From a virus, in the IMG/VR virus record IMGVR_UViG_3300045988_166883, positions 1-35,325 of that record: 35,325 nt of DNA, one strand, 5' to 3'. Of the stretch, positions 1-35,325 are shown piece by piece. The notes under the pieces were generated by a model. It made no database searches and had not been told where the DNA came from. It saw only the letters and a program-made list of their open reading frames with translations. The position numbers were made by a program, and so were the translations under genes. The stretch's first letter is position 1. Each line of letters begins with the position of its first letter.

Positions 1-2132
1 CATTCATCAAGCCATATCTGAATCTCATCGGATTCTTCCTTGTATTCGTTTGTCAAATCGAGTGAACACTGAGGAATATCCGCAAGACCTTTCTTGAAAT
101 ACATCTTTGCCCCATCGATAAGCCACGCAAGGATCTGTGGATATTCATCGGCTAGTTTCTCGCCGAGATGCCTGTCCACCTCGGATTCCTTGAGACCTAA
201 GTCGAAGGGAAGCACGATGATTCTTCGCCATATGCCCTTGTCGACTCCTGTTATCCTAGGCTCGTAATTTGTGGTGATAATAACCTTGCTAGTGAACTTG
301 TAGCTGAACTCGTTAGCGTAGAGGTATCGGGCAGTTATTTCGCCCGTTCCGCTGGTGATGTTCTTCACAAGACCTTCGTTCAATTTGTCCCTTGCACCTA
401 CCTCATCAATCCATACTAATCTTTTAGCCTTGATTCTGGCAAGTGAATTGTCGTTGTTGTTAGAGCTATATCCATCCATAACCAAGTCTTTCTTCGCCGA
501 GGTTGCATAATCGCCCAATACCTTGCTGACAGTATCCAGGAGAACGGATTTTCCATCGTTTCCATCTCCGTAGAGAAAGAATATCTTCTGCTCCCTTGTC
601 TCATCGGTTATCGAATATCCAAGCATCCTATGCACATAGTCATATGTCTCGGGGTGGTTCTTAAGAACATTCTTCAAGAACTTTATGAATTGCGTAGGCT
701 TGCTCTCGAAGTCTGGTGCATATGGAACGCACTTTGTGAAATAGTCAAGCCTGTCGTTCTCCTTGACCTCTCCAGTCCTCAAATCGTATGTGCCTTTCTT
801 CGTGCATAGCAGGTCGGGATTCTGGTCGAACATAGCATTGACCACTGGAGTCTCGCCTACTGTCTGGGATTCGGAAAGACAGTTGTCCTTGCCTTTCTTG
901 GAACGGAGATACGAGATGTTCTTCATCATCGACTTGTATTTCCTCACGGATGCTTCGGAGGGGGGATTCTCCTCAGTCCTTCCATTTATTTCCTTGTCTG
1001 CGAAGTCATTCGCCTCTATCTGCATCTTTGCGACCATCTTGTCCACGAGAGTCCTTACTCTTCCAACCATATCGGACTGCCAGTAATCTCCGTTCCATAT
1101 CATCCAAATCTTGTTCTCGACATTCCAACGCAGGTCGCAACCGAACGAATCGATGAACCTGTGTGCATTTCCTACATCATCATATGTGTAGTATGCCGAA
1201 AAATCATCCTGTATCTCATCAGCGTTCTTGCTGTTGTAATGCACAAGAGAGCAGGCTTTTCGTATTGTGGTGACTCGGTAGTCCTTCCTGTCAATCCACT
1301 TCCTTATATGCCTGTCGTTCTTGCTTTGAAACCAGGGGGATAGTCTGAAAAGCCTGTCTATCTCACTCTCGTTCTTGCCTGTCCAGAACGCAAGCTTGCA
1401 ACACAAGGACATATCGTATTGTGAATCACCTATCATCTCATCGTGATCTGTGTTGTTGTAAAGCTCCGCCAGTTTCTTGTCACGCTTGAGGAATTCATCT
1501 ATACCACCCTTGAACTGAGGAATCCTCTCATCAGCATGCACGGGTGTGGGTGCTAGTTTCTTCATATATTTATCAAGCAACCACTGGATGTCGGCTTCCT
1601 TCAAGTCATAGCTCGTGTCTGGCAAAGGGGATTCGCTCATTCTTATGACCTTGTGAGTCATTCCAGAGTTGTATATCTCCAATCCCACTGGAGTGTTGTC
1701 GCATTCGATTACAACGCCATCGGAATCGACTATCTGTCTCTTGTTGGTGTAATACGAGTCTTTGTCCCAAGTTGTCTTTGAATAGAAGACAATGTGGATT
1801 CCAGTCCTGCTAGGACTGTATTCCGCATATGAGGCTATCTTGTCAACTATCTCCATAGCGTTCGGATTCACTTTTCCATTGCTGTCTATGCAATGGTCGA
1901 TGTCGATAGCACACAAATTGAGTCCGCTTTTGGCTGTGAACAAGCCCAATGAGATTCCATCGTATCCGTTTGCCACGAATTGCTTTGCGGTCTTGTAGGA
2001 AGTGAAATCGGCTATCACATCTGGTCTTGCAAGCTCGCCATTCACCCTGTACGGAACTTTGTTCTTGTTGAGGCAGAACATTCCATACTGCTTAAGAATC
2101 TCGGGTATGCCATCGCTCCAAAGTTTTCTCAT
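1..2132 (-). CDS. DNA primase/helicase (PrimPol-like N-terminal domain + D5_N-like region + P4/D5-type SF3 helicase), 5' portion; continues across the circular junction into 34923..35184
   Basis: Open minus-strand frame from ATG 2132..2130 (SD AAAGGAG about 10 nt upstream) to base 1 with no stop inside the window, so it is absent from the ORF track. Hand translation MRKLWSDGIPEILKQYGMFCLNKNKVPYRVNGELARPDV... PrimPol-type motifs LCAIDIDHC and SRTGIHIVF; Walker A FFLYGDGNDGKSVLLDT; Walker B KRLVWIDEVG. The frame runs directly into ...LAWLIDGAKMYFKKGLADIPQ, which is the 34923..35288 ORF. Confidence 0.85.
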   Translation of the reverse strand, partial: MRKLWSDGIPEILKQYGMFCLNKNKVPYRVNGELARPDVIADFTSYKTAKQFVANGYDGISLGLFTAKSGLNLCAIDIDHCIDSNGKVNPNAMEIVDKIASYAEYSPSRTGIHIVFYSKTTWDKDSYYTNKRQIVDSDGVVIECDNTPVGLEIYNSGMTHKVIRMSESPLPDTSYDLKEADIQWLLDKYMKKLAPTPVHADERIPQFKGGIDEFLKRDKKLAELYNNTDHDEMIGDSQYDMSLCCKLAFWTGKNESEIDRLFRLSPWFQSKNDRHIRKWIDRKDYRVTTIRKACSLVHYNSKNADEIQDDFSAYYTYDDVGNAHRFIDSFGCDLRWNVENKIWMIWNGDYWQSDMVGRVRTLVDKMVAKMQIEANDFADKEINGRTEENPPSEASVRKYKSMMKNISYLRSKKGKDNCLSESQTVGETPVVNAMFDQNPDLLCTKKGTYDLRTGEVKENDRLDYFTKCVPYAPDFESKPTQFIKFLKNVLKNHPETYDYVHRMLGYSITDETREQKIFFLYGDGNDGKSVLLDTVSKVLGDYATSAKKDLVMDGYSSNNNDNSLARIKAKRLVWIDEVGARDKLNEGLVKNITSGTGEITARYLYANEFSYKFTSKVIITTNYEPRITGVDKGIWRRIIVLPFDLGLKESEVDRHLGEKLADEYPQILAWLIDGAKMYFKKGLADIPQCSLDLTNEYKEESDEIQIWLDE

Positions 2133-2202: not shown

Positions 2203-2811
2203 CTAGAAAGGCAAGTCGTCATCATCCTCGATTGCTGATGCTGTCTTCTTCTGCTCGGGTGCAGGCTCGGCTGGTCTCTCTTTCTTCTGGTCTTCGAGAG
2301 TGATAAGCTTGTGAGCTTGCTTTTCCATATCGGCACGACATTTCTCATCTTGCCAAGCCTCAGTGCTTCTCATAGACTCGAGTCTAACTGCCTTTGCCAC
2401 AAGTCCTTCCTTGTTGACATATTCGTGTTCCTGGAATACGCCTATGAAGAACTTGCCTATGAGTGTCTTCTCATCAAAGTTTGATTTTGCGAAGGAATAG
2501 CCCTTGTTGGATTTCTCGATTGCTATGATTCTCGACTTGAACAAGCTCATAGCCTTGACCGAGTAGTACAGTCTCGTAGTTCCTTGAAAGTTCCATTTTT
2601 CCTTGGTGCTGGTCTTTGAGAAATATTTCAAGTATTCGGCGTTCTCGCTTCTCACGATGTCGAAATGCAACTCAAGATATTCCTTTCCAGACTCTTCTGG
2701 ATGGTCTATCGCATCTACAATCTTCAACGCATATATGCCGCAAGGAAGGGGGGCTATTCTTTCGCCCTCCTCGCTGTTTCCAAATGTGTCCCAGTTATCA
2801 ATTCTTTTCAT
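2203..2811 (-). CDS. SSB-like ssDNA-binding protein (acidic C-terminal tail EDDDDLPF)
   Basis: 202 aa; ATG with SD GAGGAA upstream; C-terminus ...ASAIEDDDDLPF resembles the SSB DDDIPF partner-interaction tail; sits in a Sak4/exonuclease recombination module. No N-terminal OB-fold motifs recognised by eye. Confidence 0.5.
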   Translation of the reverse strand: MKRIDNWDTFGNSEEGERIAPLPCGIYALKIVDAIDHPEESGKEYLELHFDIVRSENAEYLKYFSKTSTKEKWNFQGTTRLYYSVKAMSLFKSRIIAIEKSNKGYSFAKSNFDEKTLIGKFFIGVFQEHEYVNKEGLVAKAVRLESMRSTEAWQDEKCRADMEKQAHKLITLEDQKKERPAEPAPEQKKTASAIEDDDDLPF

Positions 2812-3475
2812 TTGTCATTTCCTCTTTCTTTTCATCGTTGGTTGTCAGCTTAATATCGTAATAGTCTCTAATCGTGTTTTCAACCATTTTCAAATCGTTG
2901 TCTATGTATTGCTCATCGAACATTCCTATAGGTGTCTTAGCTGTAGTCAATCCATCGGGATCTGATGTCTCGAACACATACTGCTTTTGATTCTTGCAGG
3001 CATATAGGATGATTGTGAACAATCCATCTATGGTCAACTGATTGTCCAACATTTTACCCAAAGTCTTCAAGTGCATGAATCCATCATCATCCTTGGAGAC
3101 ATGATGCAGGAAGAAGACAATCACATTCTCTGGCAATTCATCCTTTACGAATCTTAGCAATTTTTGGAAGTTGAATGCCATCGTTGTGAACTTCTCGTAT
3201 CCGACCTGCTTTGCCTTGTCGAAACTCTCGAATGCCATTAGATACTGGCTGTCATCAATTATGAAAGTCTTGCACTTGGAACTCATGGACTTCATAGTGC
3301 TTTCGATTTTCCCATAGTCGTAAGTCTCCATAATGTACTTCTTCATTCCTGTTGCCTTGAAAGGCAATGATTTTCCCGCCACCTCGTATATGAATATTTC
3401 ACCTGGCTTGTACTTCCTAAGGGAGCTTGTCTTGCCAGAACCGCTAGCCCCCATTACAGCAACTACCATTCCCAT
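2798..3475 (-). CDS. Sak4-like RecA-fold ATPase (phage ssDNA-annealing/recombination ATPase)
   Basis: 225 aa; Walker A GASGSGKTS at the N-terminus, Walker B-like FIIDD; position between the Cas4-like nuclease and SSB is typical for Sak4. Confidence 0.7.
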   Translation of the reverse strand: MGMVVAVMGASGSGKTSSLRKYKPGEIFIYEVAGKSLPFKATGMKKYIMETYDYGKIESTMKSMSSKCKTFIIDDSQYLMAFESFDKAKQVGYEKFTTMAFNFQKLLRFVKDELPENVIVFFLHHVSKDDDGFMHLKTLGKMLDNQLTIDGLFTIILYACKNQKQYVFETSDPDGLTTAKTPIGMFDEQYIDNDLKMVENTIRDYYDIKLTTNDEKKEEMTNEKN

Positions 3476-3478
3476 AGT

Positions 3479-4366
3479 TTAATTTTGTGTCCTTTCCTTC
3501 CAGTTGCAGAACTGTGCAACTGAACAATAGTCCTCGCATCTTCTCGACACGCCTGGTCTCACCTCGAGATAGAGATGCTCGGCATCCGTATCTATCAAGG
3601 CTTGTGCCTCCTCGGCTGTCGAACATATCTTGACCGCCGATTTCCTTCCTTGCTTCATCACAGCATACAAGGTAGGCGATGCCCATCTCTCCTCTTCGGA
3701 GCAGATAGGGATATCGTTATCCGCCATAGTCTCATATCGTTTTATTGTGGCGACTCTATCCCTAATCCACTGGTCTATCTCCTCCATATCCGAGTCCGTT
3801 ATCGTGTATTCCCACACATGTATCGCACTCTTTGGATATGGTCTTCCTTGGATTGTCGCAAGTCGCTTCTGACCTTTGCTCCAATCCTTTAGGAACATAG
3901 TGAACTTGAGTCTGGATACTGTCTTCCCATAGGCTTTGAGTATCCACGCATACTCGAGTCCTTGTCGGCGATATTCGGAATAGTCGCCTTTCAGAACCTT
4001 GGTGACAGTGGCTGTCTTCCAGTCCACGACTGTCTTCCATCGGGGGTCGTACAAATCCATCCTTCCCACGATTTTTGTTCCGTACTCGTCGCCTATCTCA
4101 CGCTCGATGTACTTCTCAGCCTGCATGAAGTGAGACATGTTCCCATACTGGAGAACCTCGTGTACCGCTTTTCCGAACACTAGCCACACACAGTCGGATG
4201 CATCGATTTCTATATCGTTCCAATGCCTCCTCTCAAGTACAGAAGCCTTGCAAGGCTTAATCAATTCGGTGACATGATATACATTGTCCATAGGATTGTG
4301 TCCATCATCCTCCATACAAGCATTTATGATTTGTTTGGGGAGGAAATCCTTGTTCGTGTATTTCAT
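3479..4366 (-). CDS. Cas4-like PD-(D/E)XK exonuclease (RecB-family nuclease with Cys cluster)
   Basis: 295 aa; ATG with SD AAAGGGGAA; PD-(D/E)XK-like core GRMDLYD...VVDWKT; N-terminal Cys plus C-terminal RRCEDYCSVAQFC (CX3CX5C) as in Fe-S Cas4/DUF83 nucleases; usual partner of Sak4. Confidence 0.65.
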   Translation of the reverse strand: MKYTNKDFLPKQIINACMEDDGHNPMDNVYHVTELIKPCKASVLERRHWNDIEIDASDCVWLVFGKAVHEVLQYGNMSHFMQAEKYIEREIGDEYGTKIVGRMDLYDPRWKTVVDWKTATVTKVLKGDYSEYRRQGLEYAWILKAYGKTVSRLKFTMFLKDWSKGQKRLATIQGRPYPKSAIHVWEYTITDSDMEEIDQWIRDRVATIKRYETMADNDIPICSEEERWASPTLYAVMKQGRKSAVKICSTAEEAQALIDTDAEHLYLEVRPGVSRRCEDYCSVAQFCNWKERTQN

Positions 4367-4636: not shown

Positions 4637-4664
4637 ATTATAAGCAATTTATAAAATAATGCAA
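4637..4664 (-). promoter_or_regulatory. sigma70-type promoter for the HTH/recombination operon (TTGCAT - 16 - TATAAT)
   Basis: Minus strand: TTGCAT TATTTTATAAATTGCT TATAAT, then AGGAGG and ATG 4611. The spacer carries the ATTTTATAAA motif shared with other promoters in this genome. Confidence 0.5.
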
Positions 4665-4876
4665 TAGTTTTTGATAAAAAATAAAAAAGCACCTACAAGA
4701 TGCTCTTTGTTAAGTCTATTTTTCATCCTGTCCTTTGCATCCATTCCGCATTTTTGGAAGATGATTTCTTCCAACGCCTCTTCGTTGATTTGGTCATTGC
4801 CCATTGGCATCACGACATACCAATCATCGCCAAGAAGAATGTGCCTTGCCCATTCGCAAAACTCCGCATCTGTCAT
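4649..4876 (-). CDS. hypothetical small protein (75 aa)
   Basis: ORF-track 4649..4888 starts with TTG; first ATG at 4876 (MTDAEFCEWARHILLGDDWYVVMPMGND...); weak RBS; 3' end overlaps the downstream promoter. Coding status uncertain. Confidence 0.3.
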   Translation of the reverse strand: MTDAEFCEWARHILLGDDWYVVMPMGNDQINEEALEEIIFQKCGMDAKDRMKNRLNKEHLVGAFLFFIKNYCIIL

Positions 4877-9542: not shown

Positions 9543-9568
9543 AAAAAAATCCGCATTTTCAGCGGATT
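9543..9568 (-). terminator. intrinsic terminator ending the tail-fibre operon
   Basis: Minus strand: AATCCGC tgaaaat GCGGATT followed by TTTTTTT. Confidence 0.6.
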
Positions 9569-20969: not shown

Positions 20970-21151
20970 GACTAAGGATTTTTTACATGCATATGCCACT
21001 CGGAAGAAGACTCTATCGTTTACAAGTGGTGGCATATCACGCAAGAGGTATCAGAAAGGTATCCGAAAGGAGTAATGACTATTCAAGAACTTATCATTCA
21101 TTTTTATGAAAGAAAGGATGATACCTCACTGCTCTATATTACCACTAGCAA

Positions 21152-21218
21152 ATAAAAAAATCCATACTTCTCACCACAAAAAGTATGGACTTGCACATTT
21201 TGAGGTTTTATCCCCACG
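21152..21218 (-). ncRNA. candidate ~65-nt small RNA (promoter to first terminator in the capsid-to-connector leader)
   Basis: Begins just downstream of the TTGACT...TATATT promoter and ends at hairpin TCCATACTT-11 nt-AAGTATGGA plus a U-run (minus strand, 21161-21189 then T-tract); no ORF inside. Confidence 0.35.
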
Positions 21219-25858: not shown

Positions 25859-26026
25859 TTGTGTCAAACCTCCATATACAAAATATTATAAGGCAAATAA
25901 AAAGAGTTTGGATAAAAATCCAAACTCTAGAACAGCTTGACCTGCACATAATCCACCAGATCGCAATCCTGCTCCTTAGGCACATACAAGCCCTCTATCT
26001 TGTCATCGTAATGATTCGCACCCCTG

Positions 26027-26239
26027 TCACTCATATTTCTTCTTTATTGCCTCCCCTTCCAAATCCACTATCTCGCTAAGGAACACCCTTATGAAATCCT
26101 TGCTTATAAGACTTCGATTTATGCCCCTCTCATTTATTATCTTCTTGACTGGCTCACAGTTCAAGAACCAAAACTGAGTGGGTTTCTTGAAATAGTCTCC
26201 ATACTTGCTTCTATCCATAATTATGTAATCAGCTTTCAA
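26027..26239 (-). pseudogene. TTG-initiated 70-aa frame; with the upstream +1 frame and in-frame stops it looks like a disrupted gene
   Basis: The upstream frame (…MGYDGIDVDCVKTDHTDYVMDLLAEMDKWEKFDEIKQDDSLHKI*) joins this frame after a 1-nt shift; further in-frame TAG and TGA stops upstream. Confidence 0.3.
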
Positions 26240-26681
26240 ATCTTATGCAAGGAATCATCCTGCTTTATCTCATCGAATTTCTCCCATTTATCCATCTCGG
26301 CAAGCAAGTCCATCACATAGTCCGTATGATCTGTCTTCACACAATCGACATCTATTCCATCATAGCCCATCTCTTTCTCGACATCCTTTCTGCTCGAACA
26401 AATTCCATATTCTCATAATCCCTAGTGTCCTCCTATGTACCCAAAACACGCTAATAATTTTCTTATGGTCGCATCATTGAAATAAGTCGCAGTCATATAT
26501 TCGCCCTCAAGACAATCGGAAATATCGTATTTGAGCAACAGTCTCCAATATCTCATTATAGTGTTCCTTGATAGTCTCATCTTACGAGTGCAATAACCAC
26601 GCTTAGCACCTACAAAATCAGTTCGTATGACTATCCGGATTTCTCACAAACTCCTTTATTTCCTCATATCATTATCCCCTC

Positions 26682-27035
26682 TCAATATTCCATATAGTAC
26701 ATCTTCATCTTCAGCTGTCTTCCCCTCTTGTCCGTATTCACAGCATCGAAATCGAATATGAGCATTCCTGTCGCCTCGTGTACAACACCTCTAGACAGCT
26801 TCAACATACTCATTGCACCCAATATGAACGCCATATCCCTCTTGAAATCATCAGCACTGGTGCATTCTCTATCAAATACTTTGGCATCCACATCAATCAC
26901 CTTGGTGCTACTGCCATCCAAGTACCACTTCTTCACAACCACTATCTTCTTCACATTGTTCATCATATAGTCCAAATTGAAACATTTGCTGAAATCACGC
27001 ATCTTCCCTAGCCTCCCTATTGCTTTTACAAACAT
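26682..27035 (-). CDS. hypothetical protein (117 aa; 106 aa from the second Met), possibly a remnant
   Basis: Longest frame in the degenerate block; no recognisable motifs. Confidence 0.3.
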   Translation of the reverse strand: MFVKAIGRLGKMRDFSKCFNLDYMMNNVKKIVVVKKWYLDGSSTKVIDVDAKVFDRECTSADDFKRDMAFILGAMSMLKLSRGVVHEATGMLIFDFDAVNTDKRGRQLKMKMYYMEY

Positions 27036-27563
27036 TTCAGCCGTTTCTTTTTCATAATTTCCCTGATATATTCATCATTCATTTCTTCAAACTCCTTTGG
27101 AATCTCTTCATTTTGCCTCTTCCGCCTCCCACGCAAGCAAACTTCTCCTTGCCTATTTTGCTATAACCAGATCTCTTCATCATCTTCCTTCAAGGAAACG
27201 ACATCCCACTTTATAAACAAAGCCAAAATGTTCCAAACATATATGCCAATCAAAAAAAACTCTTGATATTAAAAGTATCTTTGTCGTCGATTATATAGTT
27301 CTGCTAATCTCCCTCAAAAACATCACATATCTCTCTAAATCTAAACGCTCTTCCAATAGACTCATTCTTTCTATGTTCCACAGTCACGCCGAACAAAGCA
27401 TTCATCCTCTCACAGATATATTCCACAGTCCTTGCCATTGCCACATATAATATGCAGTCTCTCATCATCCCTGTCATTCCAATCTTCCATTTCTGTGTCC
27501 TCCTATATCAAACTAATATTCCTTAACTTAATCTCATCCCTATATGTCCTCCTGACATCTACA

Positions 27564-27591
27564 ATTATACGCTTTTTGTAAAATTATGCAA
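27564..27591 (-). promoter_or_regulatory. sigma70-type promoter (TTGCAT - 16 - TATAAT)
   Basis: Minus strand: TTGCAT AATTTTACAAAAAGCG TATAAT, followed by AGGAGG. Confidence 0.5.
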
Positions 27592-27610
27592 CACATTTTT
27601 ATAAAATTAT

Positions 27611-27634
27611 AAAAAACACGGGTCTCCCCGTGTT
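27611..27634 (-). terminator. intrinsic terminator after terL
   Basis: Minus strand: AACACGGG gaga CCCGTGTT followed by TTTTTT. Confidence 0.65.
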
Positions 27635-27689
27635 ATTCCCAATATCGCCACCCACCCATATCCATTTATGGATACACACAAATTATAAC

Positions 27690-29194: not shown

Positions 29195-29821
29195 CTACTC
29201 ACCGCTCCCATCCGTGCGGGAATCATCACTGTCATCCTGCGGAGACTCGGACACCGTGTGTTCCTCGACACGGGCATCCACCACGCCCATCACCCTGCCA
29301 GGCTCGTGAGGCACGCTTCCGCCCTGTCCGCCCATAACCACACGCACCGATGCCTCCTTCTCGCCGACATCCGCCCTGCGTGCGAGTCCGTACTCCTCGG
29401 GGAAGCATCTCTCCATTATCCACGCCAACGCAGCCCAGTTCCTTCCGCCATCAGCCTCGCCAGCCTTCAATATACCGCTCATGCACCTCTCCGCAACCGC
29501 CGTCTCCGCCTTAGCCATGCCAACATACAGCCTCGAACACGGAGTGTCCTTCCCCTCGTCGATGTCCTCCTCGCCCTGACTCATCCACCTGTCCATCCTA
29601 GTCCTCGATATCCCGTATCTCCCACATATCATCCTCAAAGGTATACCCTCGCCACGCAACCTCAGTATCCCGTCGACCACCTCTCCCTCTGGCAACTTAC
29701 GCCCATACACCACCTGGATCTGTGTGTCCGTGCGGACATCCTCTCCGCCACGGGTATCACCGACAACACCACCACGGGTAATCTTCTTCTTACTACCCTT
29801 ACTAACCTTACGAACCGCCAT
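29195..29821 (-). CDS. terS: terminase small subunit (208 aa)
   Basis: ORF-track start 29860 is TTG; ATG 29821 (MAVRKVSKGSKKK...) has AAGGAGG upstream; basic N-terminus, HTH-like MICGRYGISRTRMDRWM, acidic C-terminal tail; 3-nt gap to terL. Confidence 0.6.
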   Translation of the reverse strand: MAVRKVSKGSKKKITRGGVVGDTRGGEDVRTDTQIQVVYGRKLPEGEVVDGILRLRGEGIPLRMICGRYGISRTRMDRWMSQGEEDIDEGKDTPCSRLYVGMAKAETAVAERCMSGILKAGEADGGRNWAALAWIMERCFPEEYGLARRADVGEKEASVRVVMGGQGGSVPHEPGRVMGVVDARVEEHTVSESPQDDSDDSRTDGSGE

Positions 29822-29845
29822 ATCGTGTGTCCTCCTTACCGCCTC

Positions 29846-29857
29846 TATTATACACGC
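29846..29857 (-). promoter_or_regulatory. extended -10 promoter (TGTATAAT) for terS/terL
   Basis: Minus strand: ttggcgTGTATAATagaggcggtAAGGAGGacacacgatATG; no good -35. Confidence 0.4.
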
Positions 29858-29887
29858 CAAAATAACCCCTAATACCCCTCATTCTCG

Positions 29888-30227
29888 GACATAGTGGACA
29901 CACTTGACACCCTTTTTTAAATCTTTCTCTATATATATCCCCTATATTCTTTACATATATGCTATATTGTTATACACTTTTTTTTTCTTGATAATAGTTT
30001 ATGGAAAAACTATGTCAACTATGTCTTAAATCCAAAAAATGCCGATGAATACTAGCTTTTTTTGTGACATAGTTGCTATCTCAAACTATGTCCTAACTAT
30101 GTCCTAACTATGTACTTTATCTCATACTGTGAGATATCTGTATTATCTGTACTATGTCCAACTATGTCCTAAAAACTATGCTTTTTCTTTACTAAATCGC
30201 TATTTTGTTATATGCCTAGGACATAGT
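29888..30227. repeat. iteron array: about 11 copies of ACTATGTC / GACATAGT in both orientations (candidate pac/cos-binding or origin repeats)
   Basis: Copies at ~29888, 30009, 30018, 30066, 30085, 30096, 30107 (variant), 30151, 30161, 30175 (variant), 30220; also the palindrome AGATATCT at ~30131. No ORF on either strand. Confidence 0.7.
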
Positions 30228-30291
30228 TTATTCGGGGGTAAAATCACACCCCTACACACCCATCCACTCAGTTTATTCGGGGGTAAAATCA
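30225..30291. repeat. two 22-bp direct repeats AGTTTATTCGGGGGTAAAATCA (30225-30246, 30270-30291) in a C-rich repeat block
   Basis: Exact duplication 45 bp apart; nearby CCCCTACACACCCA x2 (30249, 30337), TGTGATT x3, C9 tract 30472-30480. Confidence 0.7.
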
Positions 30292-30640
30292 GCCCTTAAT
30301 CGTCCCCACAATCAGCCCTGTGATTCCTCTTTCTAACCCCTACACACCCATAATCCCCACTGTGATTATTCCCCCCGTGATTATCAACAGCACCCCCCTT
30401 TTTTTATATCCCCTGTGTTTAAGGGAATAGCTTTTAGTCTTGGCTGTCCCTTCACCCGTACCATTATTTATCCCCCCCCTATTACTGACCTTTTCGATAT
30501 TCTTTTAACGGATAGTGGAGGGGCTATTTAAGGCGACGGCATTGGGGAATTTTTGGGACATTGCTATTTGAAAGTGGGGGAAAATCCTTAAAAAAAATAA
30601 TGAAAGCGGATTAAATCTAATTACTAATTTTTTGGTAGGC

Positions 30641-30695
30641 TAGTAGTAAATTAGTAGTAAATTAGTAGTAAATTAGTAGTAAATTAGTAGTAAAT
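30641..30695. repeat. 11-bp tandem repeat TAGTAGTAAAT x5
   Basis: Five perfect head-to-tail units immediately abutting the A-run of the island terminator. Confidence 0.85.
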
Positions 30696-30696
30696 T

Positions 30697-30725
30697 AAAA
30701 AAAACCGCCAGAACGTGAGGCGGTT
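30697..30725 (-). terminator. intrinsic terminator of the 157-aa island gene
   Basis: Minus strand: AACCGCC tcacgttct GGCGGTT followed by TTTTTTTT. Confidence 0.65.
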
Positions 30726-30743
30726 AGATGGTTGGGGTTACTG

Positions 30744-31217
30744 CTAGTTTAATCTAATTTGCTTACAATCGATGTCTTTAGTAATATAGCTTTTGTTAAA
30801 TTGATCTCTGTCTTTCAACATATCTTCGAGAGAATTATAAACAGTTGCGACACAAAAATCATATTTGTTATATTGGAAGTACTTTTTAACTGTTCTTTTC
30901 GATGTATCGTATCTTATCGCAATATAAACAGCTTCTTTGTTTTCATCTTCGAAAAAATAGGCGATTTGTAAAGTTGTGAAATTAAAAGTGTTGTAAGATG
31001 TAACAATATGTAAATATTTAACATTCTTCCCGCTTTTTTCCTTCAAAATGTTTCTTTCGGTGGAAAAATCGATTGCATCTTTAAGATTTGCTGTTAATTT
31101 TGCGTTGCTGCATTTTTTATAGCAATCGCTCAACTTAAATCTTAGTTTGCCAAAATCAACCTTTTTGTAAATCAAATCAACAGCGTAATTTAATAGACTT
31201 CTTGCTTTTTTTGTCAT
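30744..31217 (-). CDS. hypothetical island protein D (157 aa), own promoter/palindrome and terminator
   Basis: ATG 31217, SD GGAGGAAAA; Lys/Tyr/Phe/Asn-rich; no recognisable motif; about 33% GC. Confidence 0.55.
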   Translation of the reverse strand: MTKKARSLLNYAVDLIYKKVDFGKLRFKLSDCYKKCSNAKLTANLKDAIDFSTERNILKEKSGKNVKYLHIVTSYNTFNFTTLQIAYFFEDENKEAVYIAIRYDTSKRTVKKYFQYNKYDFCVATVYNSLEDMLKDRDQFNKSYITKDIDCKQIRLN

Positions 31218-31244
31218 AGTTTTCCTCCAACTGTCCGATTTGGA

Positions 31245-31301
31245 TAGTTAGTTAGTTCTTCTAACTAAGTAATATTATACTATTATTTTACAAATAATCA
31301 A
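31245..31301 (-). promoter_or_regulatory. promoter (TTGATT - 16 - TATAAT) with palindrome TTAGTTAG-ttctt-CTAACTAA at +1..+25; copy 1 of a duplicated ~85-bp cassette
   Basis: -35 31296-31301, -10 31274-31279, inverted repeat 31248-31268; about 88% identical to 31828-31903. Confidence 0.55.
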
Positions 31302-31441
31302 GCATTATTTATAAAATATTTTATGTTTCATATATTGCATTTTGTAGAATATGTAAGATTTTACAGATCGCCAAAAAGTCCCTATCGGATTTTAAAAAAC
31401 CTAATTTTAATGATATTTCAGTCTTGAAAACTGCGATTGAT

Positions 31442-31480
31442 AAAAAAATAGGAATATGCACAGATCATCGCATATTCCTA
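31442..31480 (-). terminator. intrinsic terminator of the 86-aa island gene
   Basis: Minus strand: TAGGAATATGC gatgatctgt GCATATTCCTA (11-bp perfect stem) followed by TTTTTTT; a C7 tract (31492-31498 on plus as G7) lies between stop and hairpin. Confidence 0.65.
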
Positions 31481-31515
31481 TATAAGAAAATGGGGGGGAT
31501 ATTTTTAAATAATTA

Positions 31516-31776
31516 TTAATAGTTAACAATCATTGTTACAATTTTATAATCAAATATTATTGTTGATTTTTCTGTTTTTTTTGTTGAATTCCAAGAAAAG
31601 CCAAGATTGATGTCATCGGCTTTTATTCCATATGCTTTTTTAACATAATTTCTTAAATGTTCAATTTTTGAAAACTTTGGGCAAGAACCATATATTAATG
31701 ATGTTCCTCCGATTGGGTTTCCTGTTTCGTCGTATTCGTGCCAGCCTTTTGCAATAGTAAATAATTTTTGTTTCAT
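31516..31776 (-). CDS. hypothetical island protein C (86 aa)
   Basis: ATG 31776; RBS region contains a small hairpin GGAGGaaaataaCCTCC; no recognisable motif. Confidence 0.5.
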   Translation of the reverse strand: MKQKLFTIAKGWHEYDETGNPIGGTSLIYGSCPKFSKIEHLRNYVKKAYGIKADDINLGFSWNSTKKTEKSTIIFDYKIVTMIVNY

Positions 31777-31827
31777 TTTGTGCCTTTCACGGAGGTTATT
31801 TTCCTCCAGATCTCTTTAATTCCGAGA

Positions 31828-31883
31828 CCTAGTTAGTTCTTTCTAACTAAGTATTATTATACTACTATTTATAAAATAGTCAA
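31828..31883 (-). promoter_or_regulatory. promoter (TTGACT - 17 - TATAAT) with palindrome TAGTTAG-ttcttt-CTAACTA; copy 2 of the duplicated cassette
   Basis: -35 31878-31883, -10 31855-31860, inverted repeat 31829-31848; similarity to copy 1 ends exactly at the helicase stop codon (31903). Confidence 0.55.
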
Positions 31884-31902
31884 GCATTATTTATAAAATA
31901 TT

Positions 31903-33276
31903 TTATGTTTGTTTTCGACTTTTTAAAACATAATAAGCCCACTGTGAGGGATGCTTGTAGCCTCTTTCCTCACCTAGTTTTTTCAGCTGTTGGAAAGTTC
32001 GACAGCGCCCACGCTGGCGCCGATTTTCGATTAGTTGATTCTTTCTAATTAAAGCTAGTTCTTTCTTGTTTTGTATCTGGATTTCTCGGACATTCAAAGG
32101 CACGGGGGTATTACAAAAAGGGCATAACCTACCCGTTAGCATCTGGGATGGCATGAACGAGCGGAGGCATTGGGGGCAAGTTTTTATAATTAGCGAATCA
32201 TGCGCGGTCTCGTGCTTATGCGTGTTTTTTAGCACGCTGGAGAGGCTCCACGACCTCGGGGCATCTGGAAAGCCGAAGCGGTAAATATTCCCCACAAAAT
32301 CGAAAATAGAGGCTCTTTTGTTTGGGTTTTGGGGGTCGCTTCTCAGGGCTCTTCCTGCCTGCTGGATGTATAAAGTTAATGATTGGGTCGCGCGGAGAAG
32401 GAATACACAGTCACAGCTTGGAACATTAAATCCTTCTCCGATTAAGTCGACATTGATTAATATTTTTATGCGGTTGTTTTTAAAATCATCTATTATTTTA
32501 TCCCTTTCGAGTTGGGGAGTCGTGCCATTGATTTCGGCAGATATTCTGGCGTTGAAATGCTCGTTAATTTGTGATTCTAGCTTTTTAGAATAATCGACAG
32601 TAGGAGAGTAAATAATCGTTTTTTTGCCAAGGTCGATATATTTCAATATGTCTCCATAGATTGCTTTTTTGTCCAGATGGTAGGCGTTGTCTGTGGTGTC
32701 GAAATCACCGCTTTTTAGCTTCCATTGTGAAAAATTGAAATTGAGGTCGGGGGAGAAATAATCATAATCAACTAAGTAGTTATTTTGGATTAGATAAGCA
32801 TAATCAACGCCGACAATTAATCGGTCGAAAATCTCACCTAGGGGTTTTCCATCCAGGCGGGCGGGGGTGGCTGTGAAACCAATAAGGGCAGTTTTAGAAT
32901 AAGCGGATAAGACCGTTTTAAAGCTGTTAGAGATTGCGTGATGGCATTCATCGATAATTATAAGAGAATAAGGTTTTATGCCCGTTTTAAGCGTTTTTTT
33001 AAAACTTTGAATCATCGCTATATTAATATGATCTGTGTTTATTTGGAAAGTCTGGAAAGCATCTATAGTTTGTTTTAAAAGCTCTTTGCGATGTAATAAA
33101 ATAAGTGCTCTATTATCTGGCTTTTTGATTGTGTTCAAATAGGCTAGATAGCAAAAAATAGCGGTCTTGCCTGCTCCACAAGGGAGTACGCAACAGAGTT
33201 TTTTATATCCGTTTTTAAAAGCATCTCGGCAATTATTAACTATAGTTTGTTGGTAGTTTCTTAATGTCAATTTCAT
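31903..33276 (-). CDS. SF2 helicase, DEAH/ResIII-type (type III restriction res-subunit-like) with C-terminal zinc ribbon, 457 aa
   Basis: Q motif RNYQ; motif I PCGAGKT; motif II IIIDECHH; motif III FTATP; motif VI QQAGRALR; C-terminal CPQC...CPFC; about 33% GC, AAA/TTT-rich codon use unlike the structural genes. Confidence 0.7.
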   Translation of the reverse strand: MKLTLRNYQQTIVNNCRDAFKNGYKKLCCVLPCGAGKTAIFCYLAYLNTIKKPDNRALILLHRKELLKQTIDAFQTFQINTDHINIAMIQSFKKTLKTGIKPYSLIIIDECHHAISNSFKTVLSAYSKTALIGFTATPARLDGKPLGEIFDRLIVGVDYAYLIQNNYLVDYDYFSPDLNFNFSQWKLKSGDFDTTDNAYHLDKKAIYGDILKYIDLGKKTIIYSPTVDYSKKLESQINEHFNARISAEINGTTPQLERDKIIDDFKNNRIKILINVDLIGEGFNVPSCDCVFLLRATQSLTLYIQQAGRALRSDPQNPNKRASIFDFVGNIYRFGFPDAPRSWSLSSVLKNTHKHETAHDSLIIKTCPQCLRSFMPSQMLTGRLCPFCNTPVPLNVREIQIQNKKELALIRKNQLIENRRQRGRCRTFQQLKKLGEERGYKHPSQWAYYVLKSRKQT

Positions 33277-33290
33277 ATTTTAGCCCCCTA

Positions 33291-33333
33291 TTTTTTTAAA
33301 AAAGCCGTGAAATATCACGGCTTAATTTTTTTT
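33291..33333. terminator. bidirectional hairpin terminator only ~15 nt upstream of the helicase start codon
   Basis: TTTTTTTAAAAAAGCCGTGaaatatCACGGCTTAATTTTTTTT: 8-bp stem with T/A runs on both sides; overlaps the stop of the 64-aa ORF. Confidence 0.5.
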
Positions 33334-33526
33334 ATAATATTTTAAACTCTATTTCATCCCCAGTTTTGCGGTTAAGCATCAGAAGCGTATCGGTCTCGGA
33401 CTGCCACAAATAACAATAATCGTTTTTTATTAAATTAACTATCATATCCTCATAATAGTTGGAATACATTCCCATTTTAGAAGTGATGCCATTCTTAGTA
33501 ATACTGATTATAAGTTCTTTGTTCAT
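33332..33526 (-). CDS. hypothetical island protein A (64 aa)
   Basis: ATG 33526; preceded by a 19-aa micro-ORF (MEKTTLKKIIGAVRELEIR) with AAAGAGG RBS. Confidence 0.4.
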   Translation of the reverse strand: MNKELIISITKNGITSKMGMYSNYYEDMIVNLIKNDYCYLWQSETDTLLMLNRKTGDEIEFKIL

Positions 33527-33658
33527 TGCGTTAATTCCTATCTAATTTCCAACTCTCTAACTGCTCCAATAATCTTTTTTAATGTGGTTTTTTCCATAAA
33601 TGTGCCTCTTTCTTTTCTGGGATGTGTTCCCTTTGTGCTTGTCTTTTCAAGCGTCCTT

Positions 33659-33687
33659 ATTCTCTCACTTTTTGTAAAATAAATCAA
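33659..33687 (-). promoter_or_regulatory. putative island promoter (TTGATT - 16/17 - GAGAAT, weak -10)
   Basis: Minus strand: TTGATT TATTTTACAAAAAGTG AGAGAAT; same spacer motif as the 27.58-kb promoter. Confidence 0.35.
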
Positions 33688-33968
33688 GCGTTTTTTACAA
33701 AATTATTTTATTTTTCATATATCCGATGAAGACAGTACATTGCAACAATAAAACAGCCATGTTTGGCGGTTGTTGACATCTGGGGGGTATGAAAAAGTGG
33801 GGTGCGGATTTTGGAATACCTGAAATTGTTGTCCGTGATTATCCTAAACAGCCCACAATCGTTGATTTTTGCCTTGTTTTAGCCACGAGATTAATCAAGA
33901 GGTATAAATATATGCCTAAATGGAATCATGTGCCTAGAATCGCTTGTTTTGAGGGGGGGGATATGTCG

Positions 33969-34016
33969 AAAACGAAAAACGGAGTTCCGTGGAAGGAACT
34001 CCGCCGAAAGGAGTTC
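33969..34016 (-). terminator. terminator with three-arm alternative pairing (GGAGTTCC / GGAACTCC / GGAGTTC) after the 267-aa gene
   Basis: Minus strand: GGAGTTCC ttccac GGAACTCC followed by GTTTTTCGTTTTCG. A third arm upstream of the hairpin on the minus strand allows a mutually exclusive hairpin. A G8 tract (33953-33960) lies just 3' of the terminator and a G7 tract (34123-34129) between the stop codon and the terminator. Confidence 0.5.
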
Positions 34017-34135
34017 ATCTAGGAATCTAGAAAATCCTGGATAGCTTTTTCAATGAAAAATCGTAATGACAGATGCCTGAAAGCATCATATGTATTTTAT
34101 AGAAACATCGTGCGGAAAGCAAGGGGGGGATTTTG

Positions 34136-34939
34136 TTATCCGATTATCTCGGATTCCACATCTATGGAAGCTTTGAGGTCTTCAAGCACCTTCTTCTTGT
34201 CGAGGCTCTTTGCTATCTTGCTTATTCGATAATTCGTGCAGTTCACATACATGTTGATTTCTCTTGTGAATGCCAGACCTTGCTTGTCGAAACTGAGATA
34301 GTTCATCAGCAAAGTTTTGGCTATATGTGTTTCCTTGACAAGCGACTCAAATGAGGAATAGGAAGATTCCTTTCCATTTATCACAGCGTGATAATCTCGC
34401 TGTCCTCCGCTCCAAACAGAAACCCCGTTCTCATCGAGATAGCAGTATTGATTGACTTGCCTTTTCAAATCATAGAATGCTTTGTTGGCATCTGCCGAGA
34501 TTGGATTGTATTCGACACCCAATGCGGATGCAAGCTCTATGAAGTTGTCAAAGCAGTCATCCACTCCATTGTTGACTATCAGCTCGTAGCTGTACCAAAT
34601 CTTTATACCTAGATTGTTGAGAAAATGTTTGAACCAGACAAGGTTGGTAGGATTCGGATACATGGTCATTCGTGCAAGCATTTTGAAAGAAATCATCCCG
34701 TTCAGATAATTGACTAGGTTGTTTCTGAAAGGGAAGGGGTAGTCCGTAAAACTCACAAGCGAGTTCGGATAGGTGTAGTCGCTACTTGCCAAGAACCTCT
34801 CATCCATAGCCCTGTATCGAGGCATCATGTAATCGACGCCTTTCATGTCGTACAGTTCCTTGTGTGGATAGTCGCTTGCCGACATCGCCACCTTGTTCAT
34901 TATCTCACTTGGTGCTGGTTTTTTAGATTTCGTTCTCAT
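34136..34939 (-). CDS. hypothetical protein (267 aa) downstream of the primase/helicase, possibly replication-associated
   Basis: ORF-track 34136..35005 trimmed to ATG 34939 (MRTKSKKPAPSEIMNKV...), which has GGAGGA 9 nt upstream; 17-nt overlap with the primase 3' end; no motif recognised. Confidence 0.5.
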   Translation of the reverse strand: MRTKSKKPAPSEIMNKVAMSASDYPHKELYDMKGVDYMMPRYRAMDERFLASSDYTYPNSLVSFTDYPFPFRNNLVNYLNGMISFKMLARMTMYPNPTNLVWFKHFLNNLGIKIWYSYELIVNNGVDDCFDNFIELASALGVEYNPISADANKAFYDLKRQVNQYCYLDENGVSVWSGGQRDYHAVINGKESSYSSFESLVKETHIAKTLLMNYLSFDKQGLAFTREINMYVNCTNYRISKIAKSLDKKKVLEDLKASIDVESEIIG

Positions 34940-35325
34940 CGTTTGTGTCCTCCGCCATTGCTCTAGCCATCTGTGCCTTGTTTTTGTCGATAGACTTGTT
35001 GGCAAGCCTAAGTCCGAAATAGACAGTCATATGGTTGACTCTTGCCTTCTTGAACTTCTTACGCATCGACTTTCCCCAGATAGTCTGGGATAGCTTGGGC
35101 TGATTCTCCTTCAATGCCCATGTGATGAAGCTGTTATACAGCTCGCTTGCTGTGTTGGGGAAATCCTCTGGAGCTGTGTCCGTGCATTCATCAAGCCATA
35201 TCTGAATCTCATCGGATTCTTCCTTGTATTCGTTTGTCAAATCGAGTGAACACTGAGGAATATCCGCAAGACCTTTCTTGAAATACATCTTTGCCCCATC
35301 GATAAGCCACGCAAGGATCTGTGGA
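34923..35325 (-). CDS. 3' end (C-terminal ~134 aa) of the same primase/helicase gene
   Basis: ORF-track frame 34923..35288 continues upstream to the window edge without a stop. Bases 35185-35325 are identical to 1-141, so this is the tail of the gene whose 5' part is 1..2132. Confidence 0.8.
   Translation of the reverse strand, partial: PQILAWLIDGAKMYFKKGLADIPQCSLDLTNEYKEESDEIQIWLDECTDTAPEDFPNTASELYNSFITWALKENQPKLSQTIWGKSMRKKFKKARVNHMTVYFGLRLANKSIDKNKAQMARAMAEDTNDENEI
35185..35325. repeat. 141-bp terminal duplication (identical to 1..141): circular contig overlap or terminal redundancy
   Basis: Direct comparison of the window ends: cattcatcaagccatatctg...gcaaggatctgtgga occurs at both. Confidence 0.9.

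Follow-up and report, generated by a model that had tools for sequence, protein, structure and literature searches.

Is a helicase gene that lies in an AT-rich patch of a phage genome, beside small genes without recognizable domains, part of an accessory defence module, or does it belong to the phage's own replication machinery? The question is raised by the IMG/VR virus record IMGVR_UViG_3300045988_166883, whose whole stretch of 35,325 nucleotides (nt) was analysed here and is called the window. The region 30744-33700 contains four open reading frames (ORFs) that a sequence-only reading of the window had placed correctly, all on the minus strand and encoding products of 157, 86, 457 and 64 amino acids (aa). 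The 457-aa product is a superfamily 2 (SF2) helicase; the small ones are called p157, p86 and p64. That reading had proposed an accessory module for defence, counter-defence or superinfection exclusion, made up of the helicase and its small partners, or alternatively a second, acquired replication/recombination helicase. We consider it highly probable that the helicase is instead the RadD-like gene of the phage's module of exonuclease, Sak4, single-stranded DNA-binding protein (SSB) and D5-type primase, and that the small ORFs are not its partners but swappable cassettes or a passenger.

The helicase and its family

The SF2 motif set and the zinc ribbon reported for the 457-aa product are complete. 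PCGAGKT, DECHH, TATP, QQAGRALR and CPQC...CPFC were all located, and all fall on invariant columns of the family. Pfam models for ResIII (1.8e-27) and Helicase_C (6.6e-21) match the protein, and PHROG 16 ("DNA helicase") matches residues 1-406 at 5.6e-90. A tblastn search returned 2405 phage records, 1053 of them covering at least 80% of the query, with the best matches (32-38% identical) in the Listeria phages PSA, LP-101 and B025, the Lactobacillus phages A2 and phiadh and the Enterococcus phage phiEG37K. In an alignment with PSA, A2, phiEG37K and IMG/VR relatives, residues C367, C370, C385, C388, Y440, W446 and A447 are invariant, and the C-terminus has a conserved GY..WA helix. Because the cysteines and the GY..WA element are invariant across phages, the zinc ribbon is a hallmark of the family and no peculiarity of one phage. 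The helicase itself is a known and very common kind of phage protein in a less common position. It is also the sole SF2 helicase of the genome and rounds off a Sak4/SSB/primase set that is standard in other respects, so that the alternative offered by the sequence-only reading comes close in naming a replication/recombination role and fails in calling the helicase a second one.

The best match in the PDB is Escherichia coli RadD (6jde, 2.9e-28, residues 3-338), and the best NCBIfam model is RadD/YejH (NF053632; 3.4e-42, 144.5 bits, profile positions 2-366 of 573), with no RadD match in the C-terminal 121 residues even at E <= 10. PADLOC gave partial matches to generic SF2 motors only, mostly to the C-terminal helicase domain, such as PbeA (9e-25, residues 208-328) and mREase_IV (7e-22, 29-330 of a 945-position model). 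None of the PADLOC defence helicases (PbeA, type I/IV REases, DpdF, ZorD, HmaA, Nhi, Cas3) matches over its full length.

Synteny and conservation of the helicase gene

In a profile-guided scan that covered a single genome of each bacterial species, 454 helicase relatives were confirmed. The best 80, which are 36-42% identical, span almost the whole protein in nearly all cases and belong mostly to genomes or metagenome-assembled genomes of Clostridia from gut and rumen, were used for synteny, with neighbours sought within 6 kb of the helicase by tblastn with the proteins of the window, PSA, A2 and phiEG37K. The primase was found at 61 of these 80 loci, the DUF669-type SSB at 60, Gam at 39 and Sak4 at 28, and the commonest order is Gam-(Sak4)-helicase-SSB-primase. 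PSA, A2 and phiEG37K likewise carry the helicase within a Gam-Sak4-helicase-SSB(DUF669)-primase block. At none of the 80 loci was a homologue of p64, p86 or p157 detected, so that the recurrence of the small ORFs beside such helicases, which the sequence-only reading had proposed to look for, is absent at a distance and variable in the closer relatives described below. Judged by gene content, an exonuclease/Sak4/DUF669-SSB/D5-primase module with such a helicase is found in many siphoviruses of Firmicutes.

The helicase of the window lies at the downstream end of this module instead of between Sak4 and the SSB gene. The nearest outgroup, locus L029 (42% helicase identity), has a contiguous exonuclease-Sak4-SSB-primase-helicase order with 244 nt between primase and helicase. 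This shared order indicates that the window has an old form of the replication operon, one that later took in additional genes. Nine close-relative loci were collected from IMG/VR, ENA and Logan, in which primase, Sak4, SSB and terL are 96-100% identical to those of the window at the protein level; these too are denoted by L numbers below. The helicase is kept in all nine (84-90% aa identity), with a ratio of nonsynonymous to synonymous divergence (dN/dS) of 0.08-0.12. The block had been described as lying between the replication module and the repeats next to terS, a description that leaves the helicase on the wrong side of the boundary, since the gene itself belongs to the replication module.

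Variable genes between the helicase and terS

The interval between the helicase and terS is occupied by different genes in different relatives. The window has p86 and p157 there, L022 and L025 have a p157 homologue only, L024 a p157 homologue and a 55-aa gene, and L027 a 206-aa gene on the opposite strand together with a p86 homologue. L109 and L110 combine p86 with an unrelated 131-aa gene, L006 has a different 131-aa gene and L008 a 102-aa gene. Within the nine close relatives p86 is missing from eight and p157 from five; L006-L009 lack both, with the unrelated orphans of L006 and L008 in their place. A domain scan of the relatives' alternative cargo genes left all of them as orphans, the 206-aa gene of L027 giving weak Lar-like and zinc-ribbon matches below significance. 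From this pattern, p86 and p157 appear to be independent, interchangeable cassettes in a genuine and sharply bounded hotspot of about 30300-31900, plus 33530-33980. The cargo hotspot with moron-like units that the sequence-only reading had described is therefore borne out by the variation of p86 and p157 among relatives.

Four p86 homologues were found in all, and they follow the helicase in L027, L109 and L110, with different neighbours. The p157 family is new and larger, at about 20 members: 11 close homologues and about 10 distant ones of 135-156 aa, with the shared motifs DCY..YS, SHN..FFT.LQ.AYF and RYDT. Among the close relatives, L022, L024 and L025/26 have p157 homologues. Viral-contig scans returned no relative of p157 or p86, and the homologues came from a large protein database only. 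A p157 profile search of 1.8 billion representatives enlarged the family and added no annotation, and 15 family members matched nothing in Pfam, PHROGs, NCBIfam or the PDB. A weak T4_Cef match of p157 (E = 0.044) was dismissed as chance. As had been noted from the letters, the small ORFs have no recognizable domains: p64, p86 and p157 have no significant match in Pfam, PHROGs, PADLOC or NCBIfam. Values of dN/dS are 0.31 for p86 and 0.17-0.21 for p157, and purifying selection on all four genes in relatives (0.04-0.31) indicates that they are real genes. The sequence-only reading had named a syntenic core helicase and unconserved small ORFs without coding signal as what would speak against its module. 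The helicase is such a core gene and the presence of the small ORFs varies, but their coding signal is clear.

The cassettes have a common anatomy (Table 1). The predicted promoters match the consensus at 11 of 12 positions for p86 (31883-31856) and 10 of 12 for p157 (31301-31274), which is consensus-level evidence, and both lie within a 70-nt direct repeat whose copies are 91% identical and whose 27-nt core has exactly two occurrences in the genome (0 expected). After each promoter, at the predicted 5′ end of the mRNA, stands the palindrome UUAGUUAG..CUAACUA, which forms the first of the hairpins predicted in the p86 leader. The promoter/leader unit is kept ahead of different cargo genes in L006, L025 and L027. 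The terminator of p157 is 97% conserved in L006, and the 130-bp linker has 82-86% matches elsewhere in L007, L008, L022, L025 and L026, where it lies upstream of a p64-type promoter. The two outer terminators of the island, predicted earlier, are both stable hairpins followed by U-runs. The description of the island as promoter-gene-terminator units applies to p86 and p157 and does not extend to the helicase, which has no promoter of its own and sits behind p64 and a hairpin. Thus p86 and p157 have the features of morons as far as these can be read from the genomes (a predicted promoter and terminator each, patchy presence and deviant composition), and the helicase has no unit of its own.

The duplicated promoter/leader and the conserved spacers probably act as homology linkers, through which cassettes would be swapped between co-infecting relatives. 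Anti-defence or exclusion roles are plausible for the cargo genes.

One compensatory change was seen in a stem of the p86 leader in L027 (GGAGG/CCUCC to GGAAG/CUUCC), and the sequences are too few to claim a conserved RNA element. Rfam gave nothing credible over 29500-35325, the p86 leader included.

The p64 gene and the slot upstream of the helicase

p64 immediately precedes the helicase and belongs to the same transcription unit. The gap between the two genes is 55 nt in the window and 50-60 nt in L006, L009, L022, L024 and L025/26. p64 is intact in six relative loci (L025 and L026 apparently represent one phage), decayed in L008 and L021 and absent from L027, in which the helicase starts 75 nt after the gene p266. 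It is under strong purifying selection (dN/dS 0.04-0.11), and its 48 homologues are apparently confined to this phage group. A structural model shows a small beta-beta-alpha-beta-beta-beta domain (mean predicted local distance difference test score 68), for which no fold match was found. p64 is a frequent yet dispensable neighbour of the helicase, a passenger in a second slot upstream of it. The GC-rich hairpin between p64 and the ribosome-binding site of the helicase is near-invariant in seven aligned relatives, two of which have single-base stem changes, and it is probably a partial terminator or an attenuator. The putative promoter of the p64-helicase unit, a weak consensus match below the threshold of the promoter scan, was read from the sequence, and its motif is kept in L022.

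Further genes have come and gone in this slot. A 19-codon ORF in the window is a remnant of a larger gene, of which relatives have longer versions (249 aa in L008, 141 aa in L009, 246 aa in L022), the remnant peptide recurring at or near the start of ORFs in these three loci. A 77-aa ORF on the plus strand, which runs over the p289 terminator and was called in the source contig, is intact solely in L007, fragmented in L008 and L009 and partial in L022, and matches no Pfam, PHROGs or NCBIfam family; it is either a decaying gene or no gene.

Composition and divergence

The AT-rich island of the sequence-only reading exists as a region, at 33.9% GC for 30744-33700 against 43.6% for the genome, but it is not uniform. 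The helicase has 39.7% GC, with 0.41 at third codon positions (GC3), and p64 (30.8%), p86 (28.0%), p157 (28.9%) and the small ORFs and spacers generally (26-31%) are lower. The comparison with terS (58.7%) and terL (52.6%, GC3 0.71), moreover, set the island against the high-GC extreme of the genome (27690-29860). Across the nine helicase alleles GC3 ranges from 0.34 to 0.41, lower than the 0.54-0.56 of Sak4, SSB and exonuclease. Since it is low in every genome, the AT-richness is clade-wide and old, and no sign of recent import.

Synonymous divergence (dS) from the same relatives is 0.8-1.2 for the helicase and 1.2-1.3 for p64, with one saturated value of 3.0, against 0.14-0.25 for Sak4 and terL. 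The nine helicase alleles are mutually 75-83% identical at the nucleotide level in a star-like pattern. In the same genomes terL, which is among the most conserved genes of the clade, has 95-97.5% nucleotide identity and a dS of about 0.15. A profile of identity to relatives in 200-bp steps runs at 91-97% over the primase and p289, falls to about 76-88% in the 5′ part of the helicase and 70-78% at its 3′ end, lies at 53-85% in the cargo interval and the adjoining part of the repeat block, and returns abruptly to 91-96% from about 30285. The helicase thus sits on the flank of a peak of diversity whose centre is the cargo, and linkage to the hotspot would explain both its AT-richness and its deep synonymous divergence.

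Comparison with known systems

The helicases of PHROG 16 (PSA 'hel', NP_511031; A2 ORF33, NP_680515; phiadh; phiEG37K) are homologous over their full length (32-38% identity, 93-100% coverage) and share the SF2 motifs, the C4 ribbon, the GY..WA element and the company of Sak4, a DUF669-type SSB and a D5-type primase. The order differs, with the helicase between Sak4 and SSB in phages of the PSA/A2 type and after the primase in the window and L029. In the clade of the window it is parted further from the primase, unlike in L029, by p289, a terminator and a variable slot, and the helicase is more AT-rich and diverged than its neighbours, unlike in the PHROG 16 phages used for comparison. Members of the family routinely accompany Sak4, DUF669-type SSB and D5-type primase and are best annotated as RadD-like replication/recombination helicases. 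A zinc ribbon and an AT-rich setting do not in themselves make a ResIII-type helicase of a phage a defence candidate.

In RadD, two RecA-like domains are combined with a pair of zinc fingers and a C-terminal domain (PMC9049331). The protein speeds up strand exchange by RecA and has no helicase activity of its own (PMC8887467). The phage protein resembles E. coli RadD (YejH; 6jde, 7r7j) in its two RecA-like domains, Q motif and motifs I-VI, followed by a cysteine zinc element and a C-terminal domain. The partners of RadD are a RecA-family recombinase and SSB (PMC8887467, PMC9049331), and the phage encodes the RecA-like Sak4 and an SSB that ends in DDDDLPF. The helicase differs from RadD in having one ribbon in place of ZF1 and ZF2, in length (457 against 586 aa) and in a much shorter, unrelated tail. 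By this analogy the helicase most likely spends ATP in speeding or resolving strand-annealing and strand-exchange intermediates of Sak4 and SSB, and would thereby support recombination-dependent replication and the formation of concatemers ahead of packaging. The fork helicase would probably be the D5/SF3 domain of the primase. For a very common and apparently little-studied phage family, the analogy offers the hypothesis that these proteins accelerate Sak4-mediated recombination.

Morons of lambdoid and HK97-type phages are promoter-gene-terminator insertions between conserved genes, and expression from the prophage is part of the classical idea. The cassettes of p86 and p157 resemble them in a near-consensus promoter, an own terminator, 28-29% GC and presence/absence polymorphism among syntenic genomes. 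They differ in the duplicated 70-nt promoter/leader and in what appears to be combinatorial shuffling, which is closer to a cassette array than to a single insertion, and no integrase or repressor was identified in the genome.

Points against this assignment and alternative explanations

Several observations weigh against the assignment of the helicase to the replication module as a RadD-like protein. The RadD match of 144.5 bits lies far below the equivalog cut-off of 720 bits, and a single CxxC..CxxC element stands against the two zinc fingers of RadD, so that a RadD-like mechanism is an analogy. In a limited literature search no experiments were found on any member of the phage helicase family. 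The gene is displaced from the usual Sak4-SSB position of its family and lies behind a strong terminator after the primase operon. It is more AT-rich (GC3 0.41 against 0.54-0.56) and far more diverged (dS 0.8-1.2 against 0.15-0.25) than the other replication genes, which would also fit a separate acquisition. A link between p64 and the helicase is possible because p64 accompanies it in most relatives. Finally, two rearrangements detach the helicase from the primase, which is the behaviour of an autonomous transcription unit. In L007/L021 (IMGVR_UViG_3300045988_173184) the p64-helicase cassette, corresponding to window positions 34036-31898 with the upstream promoter region, is inverted and lies after the major capsid gene, ahead of the head gene that follows, in exchange for an intergenic 100-bp piece (window 21116-21215). 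In L025/L026, which are ENA and Logan assemblies possibly of the same sample, an inversion of about 10.9 kb, bounded by breakpoints near 9555 and 33812, takes in the early genes together with the primase module, and the helicase cassette stays on the terS side. Both may be either real or metagenome misassemblies; if they are real, the p64-helicase unit is capable of independent expression.

An extension of our assignment, which we put forward tentatively, is that both slots form a cassette array under balancing or diversifying selection, holding linker-swapped orphans some of which would be new anti-defence or exclusion proteins, with the divergence of the helicase due to hitch-hiking. Besides the p157 family, p86 and p64, the array would take in six or more further unrelated ORFs of gut phages. 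The hotspot lies in an apparently abundant group of gut or rumen phages and its cargo genes are all orphans under purifying selection, which makes them reasonable candidates for anti-defence or exclusion screens.

Less probable, and in our view unlikely, is a xenologous replacement, in which the ancestor of the clade lost the helicase between Sak4 and SSB and gained that of a lower-GC phage, with its promoter, downstream of the primase. The non-canonical position, the GC3 of 0.34-0.41 in nine alleles (against the 0.54-0.56 of the other module genes and the 0.70-0.72 of terL), the strong terminator that parts the gene from the primase operon and the movement of the cassette as a unit in L007/L021 would all agree with such an event. 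However, the window-type order is already contiguous in L029, whose module proteins are about 29-42% identical to those of the window, and this marks the order as old and operon-like and not as a recent insertion. The gradient of divergence through the gene also fits linkage to a hypervariable slot better than a discrete import. The helicase would be the phage's replication/recombination helicase either way.

We regard it as rather improbable that p64 and the helicase are a functional pair, with p64 a co-transcribed modulator, loader or inhibitor and the hairpin between them attenuating. The similar spacing in several relatives, the conservation of the hairpin, the strong selection on p64, its deep dS like that of the helicase and the restriction of its homologues to this phage group are what such a pair would show. 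Against it, the helicase is intact and constrained where p64 is absent (L027) or decayed (L008 and L021), p64 is found neither at the 80 distant loci nor in PSA, A2 or L029, and linkage to the diversity valley accounts for the deep divergence that both genes have in common.

Many Gram-positive phages carry small activators of the RinA/ArpU/Ltr type immediately ahead of terS, and p157, or any other gene that takes the final slot there, might be a late-gene activator or DNA-binding regulator that acts on the adjacent tandem repeats. p157 adjoins the repeat block and terS, a 5.2-copy 11-bp repeat follows its terminator, and at least one ACTACTAA unit is present in all four p157-bearing genomes. 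Yet ACTACTAA repeats also occur in L009 and L021, both of which lack p157, and in its divergent part the repeat block of L022, which has p157, shows no greater similarity than that of L027 or L008, which lack it; the late-activator or iteron idea is thus not supported by co-variation of the repeats. The 15 family members match no regulator family in Pfam, PHROGs or NCBIfam, a low-confidence model has no helix-turn-helix, and an essential late activator is unlikely to be missing from L006-L009 and L027. We consider this explanation very doubtful.

The novel defence, counter-defence or exclusion module with which we began, for which one could cite the AT-rich composition, the site at a real cargo hotspot, the autonomy of the helicase in rearranged relatives, the likeness of its motor to some defence helicases (PbeA and type IV REase in PADLOC) and the orphan status of the small ORFs, is extremely improbable: PADLOC finds nothing for the small ORFs and covers parts of a generic motor against the 406 residues matched by phrog_16, the helicase is universal in the clade and a syntenic core gene whereas p86 and p157 vary independently of it and of each other, the small ORFs are at 0 of the 80 distant loci against 60-61 for SSB and primase, and p86 and p157, each with a predicted promoter and terminator of its own, form no operon with the helicase.

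Genome context and further features

A direct overlap of 141 bp between the ends of the window indicates a complete circular phage genome of 35,184 bp. The identical helicase protein is also encoded on a 35,168-bp ENA contig and a 17.1-kb Logan contig. Nearly all genes lie on the minus strand, in the order exonuclease, Sak4, SSB, primase, p289, terminator, helicase/cargo block, repeat block, terS and terL, with about 840 bp of non-coding repeats between the cargo and terS. The exonuclease, Sak4 and SSB (2203-4366) are the expected functional partners of the helicase. Because the genome is circular, the primase gene runs across the window junction; it is seen whole in L004. The orphan p289 is 87-96% identical in every relative locus that covers its interval (L008, L009, L021, L022, L027), has no homologue at the 80 distant loci and matches no family in Pfam, PHROGs or NCBIfam and nothing in PADLOC. 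The C-terminus of the SSB reads ...IEDDDDLPF and is a classical acidic tip, a type that recruits partners; this bears on a possible recruitment of the helicase and Sak4.

A holin and a tail-fibre domain are present in the genome, no integrase or repressor was identified among the ORFs scanned, and no tRNA gene was found. A TerL scan of 185,579 species genomes revealed no prophage copy or host, and a DNA search with 30500-34100 matched none of 50,697 phage records. The host is putatively one of the Clostridia, an assignment made solely from where the more distant helicase homologues occur.

Table 1. Positions of the features discussed, in window coordinates.
Feature	Position	Strand	Details
RadD-like SF2 ATPase/helicase, 457 aa, C4 zinc ribbon	31903-33276	-	highly probable core replication/recombination gene
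p64, 64-aa orphan directly upstream of helicase	33332-33526	-	same transcription unit as helicase
p86, 86-aa orphan cargo gene	31516-31776	-	moron-type cassette
p157, 157-aa orphan cargo gene	30744-31217	-	founder of small uncharacterised family
Promoter unit copy 1, predicted to drive p86	31841-31910	-	TTGACT, 16 nt, TATAAT; palindrome ATAAAATATTTTAT before it
Promoter unit copy 2, predicted to drive p157	31259-31328	-	TTGATT, 16 nt, TATAAT; palindrome UUAGUUAG..CUAACUAA
Structured 5′ leader of p86	31777-31850	-	four predicted hairpins; -21.9 kcal/mol, z = -3.9
p86 cassette terminator	31448-31481	-	13-bp stem and T-run; -16.3 kcal/mol, z = -5.2
p157 cassette terminator, end of island	30697-30725	-	7-bp stem, 9-nt loop, U8; -11.2 kcal/mol, z = -4.3
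Non-coding linker, 130 bp	31292-31421	-	candidate recombination linker
Conserved GC-rich hairpin between p64 and helicase ribosome-binding site	33302-33323	.	T-runs on both sides; -15.0 kcal/mol, z = -5.7
Candidate promoter of p64-helicase unit	33659-33687	-	TTGATT, 17 nt, GAGAAT; weak consensus match
Remnant of larger gene, 19 codons	33538-33597	-	translation MEKTTLKKIIGAVRELEIR*
77-aa ORF over p289 terminator	33789-34022	+	doubtful gene
Strong terminator closing primase-p289 operon	33978-34005	-	11-bp stem and T-run; -18.1 kcal/mol
p289 (called as 267 aa), orphan between primase and helicase	34136-35005	-	
D5_N/DUF5906 primase-helicase, 797 aa, C-terminal end	34923-35325, on into 2132..1	-	phrog_1829, 4.9e-126
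DUF669-type SSB	2203-2811	-	phrog_378, 3.3e-06
Sak4-like recombinase	2798-3475	-	phrog_2872, 1.3e-59
Exonuclease	3479-4366	-	phrog_2139, 5e-42

The non-coding block upstream of terS (29861-30696), within which identity to relatives rises from about 70% to about 95% at ~30285, contains GACATAGTT(A/G)G repeats and G-runs, and such repeats are present in every genome with a readable repeat listing (the window, L006, L008 and L009). The perfect 11-bp tandem repeat that directly follows the p157 terminator is TAATTTACTAC, and relatives have other short tandem repeats at this spot, for example 7.9 copies of ATCTACCAAT in L008. The block may be a pac site, an origin or a late promoter region. The motif ATATCCCCCCC occurs three times on the minus strand (31492-31509, 33954-33971 and 34123-34140), each time near a stop codon or a terminator.

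A second variable region lies between terL and the portal gene (25868-27689). In the window it holds nothing but small orphan ORFs, at about 40% GC and with a strongly negative GC skew; relatives have HTH_3 regulators of 123-126 aa in its place, and L022 has a D12-class methyltransferase there. In the early region, just upstream of the exonuclease gene, a 75-aa ORF (4649-4876, minus strand) matches the Pfam model of the type II Thoeris inhibitor Tad8 (PF25189) at 1.9e-09 and 37.6 bits, above the cut-off of 27, and is a candidate anti-defence gene.

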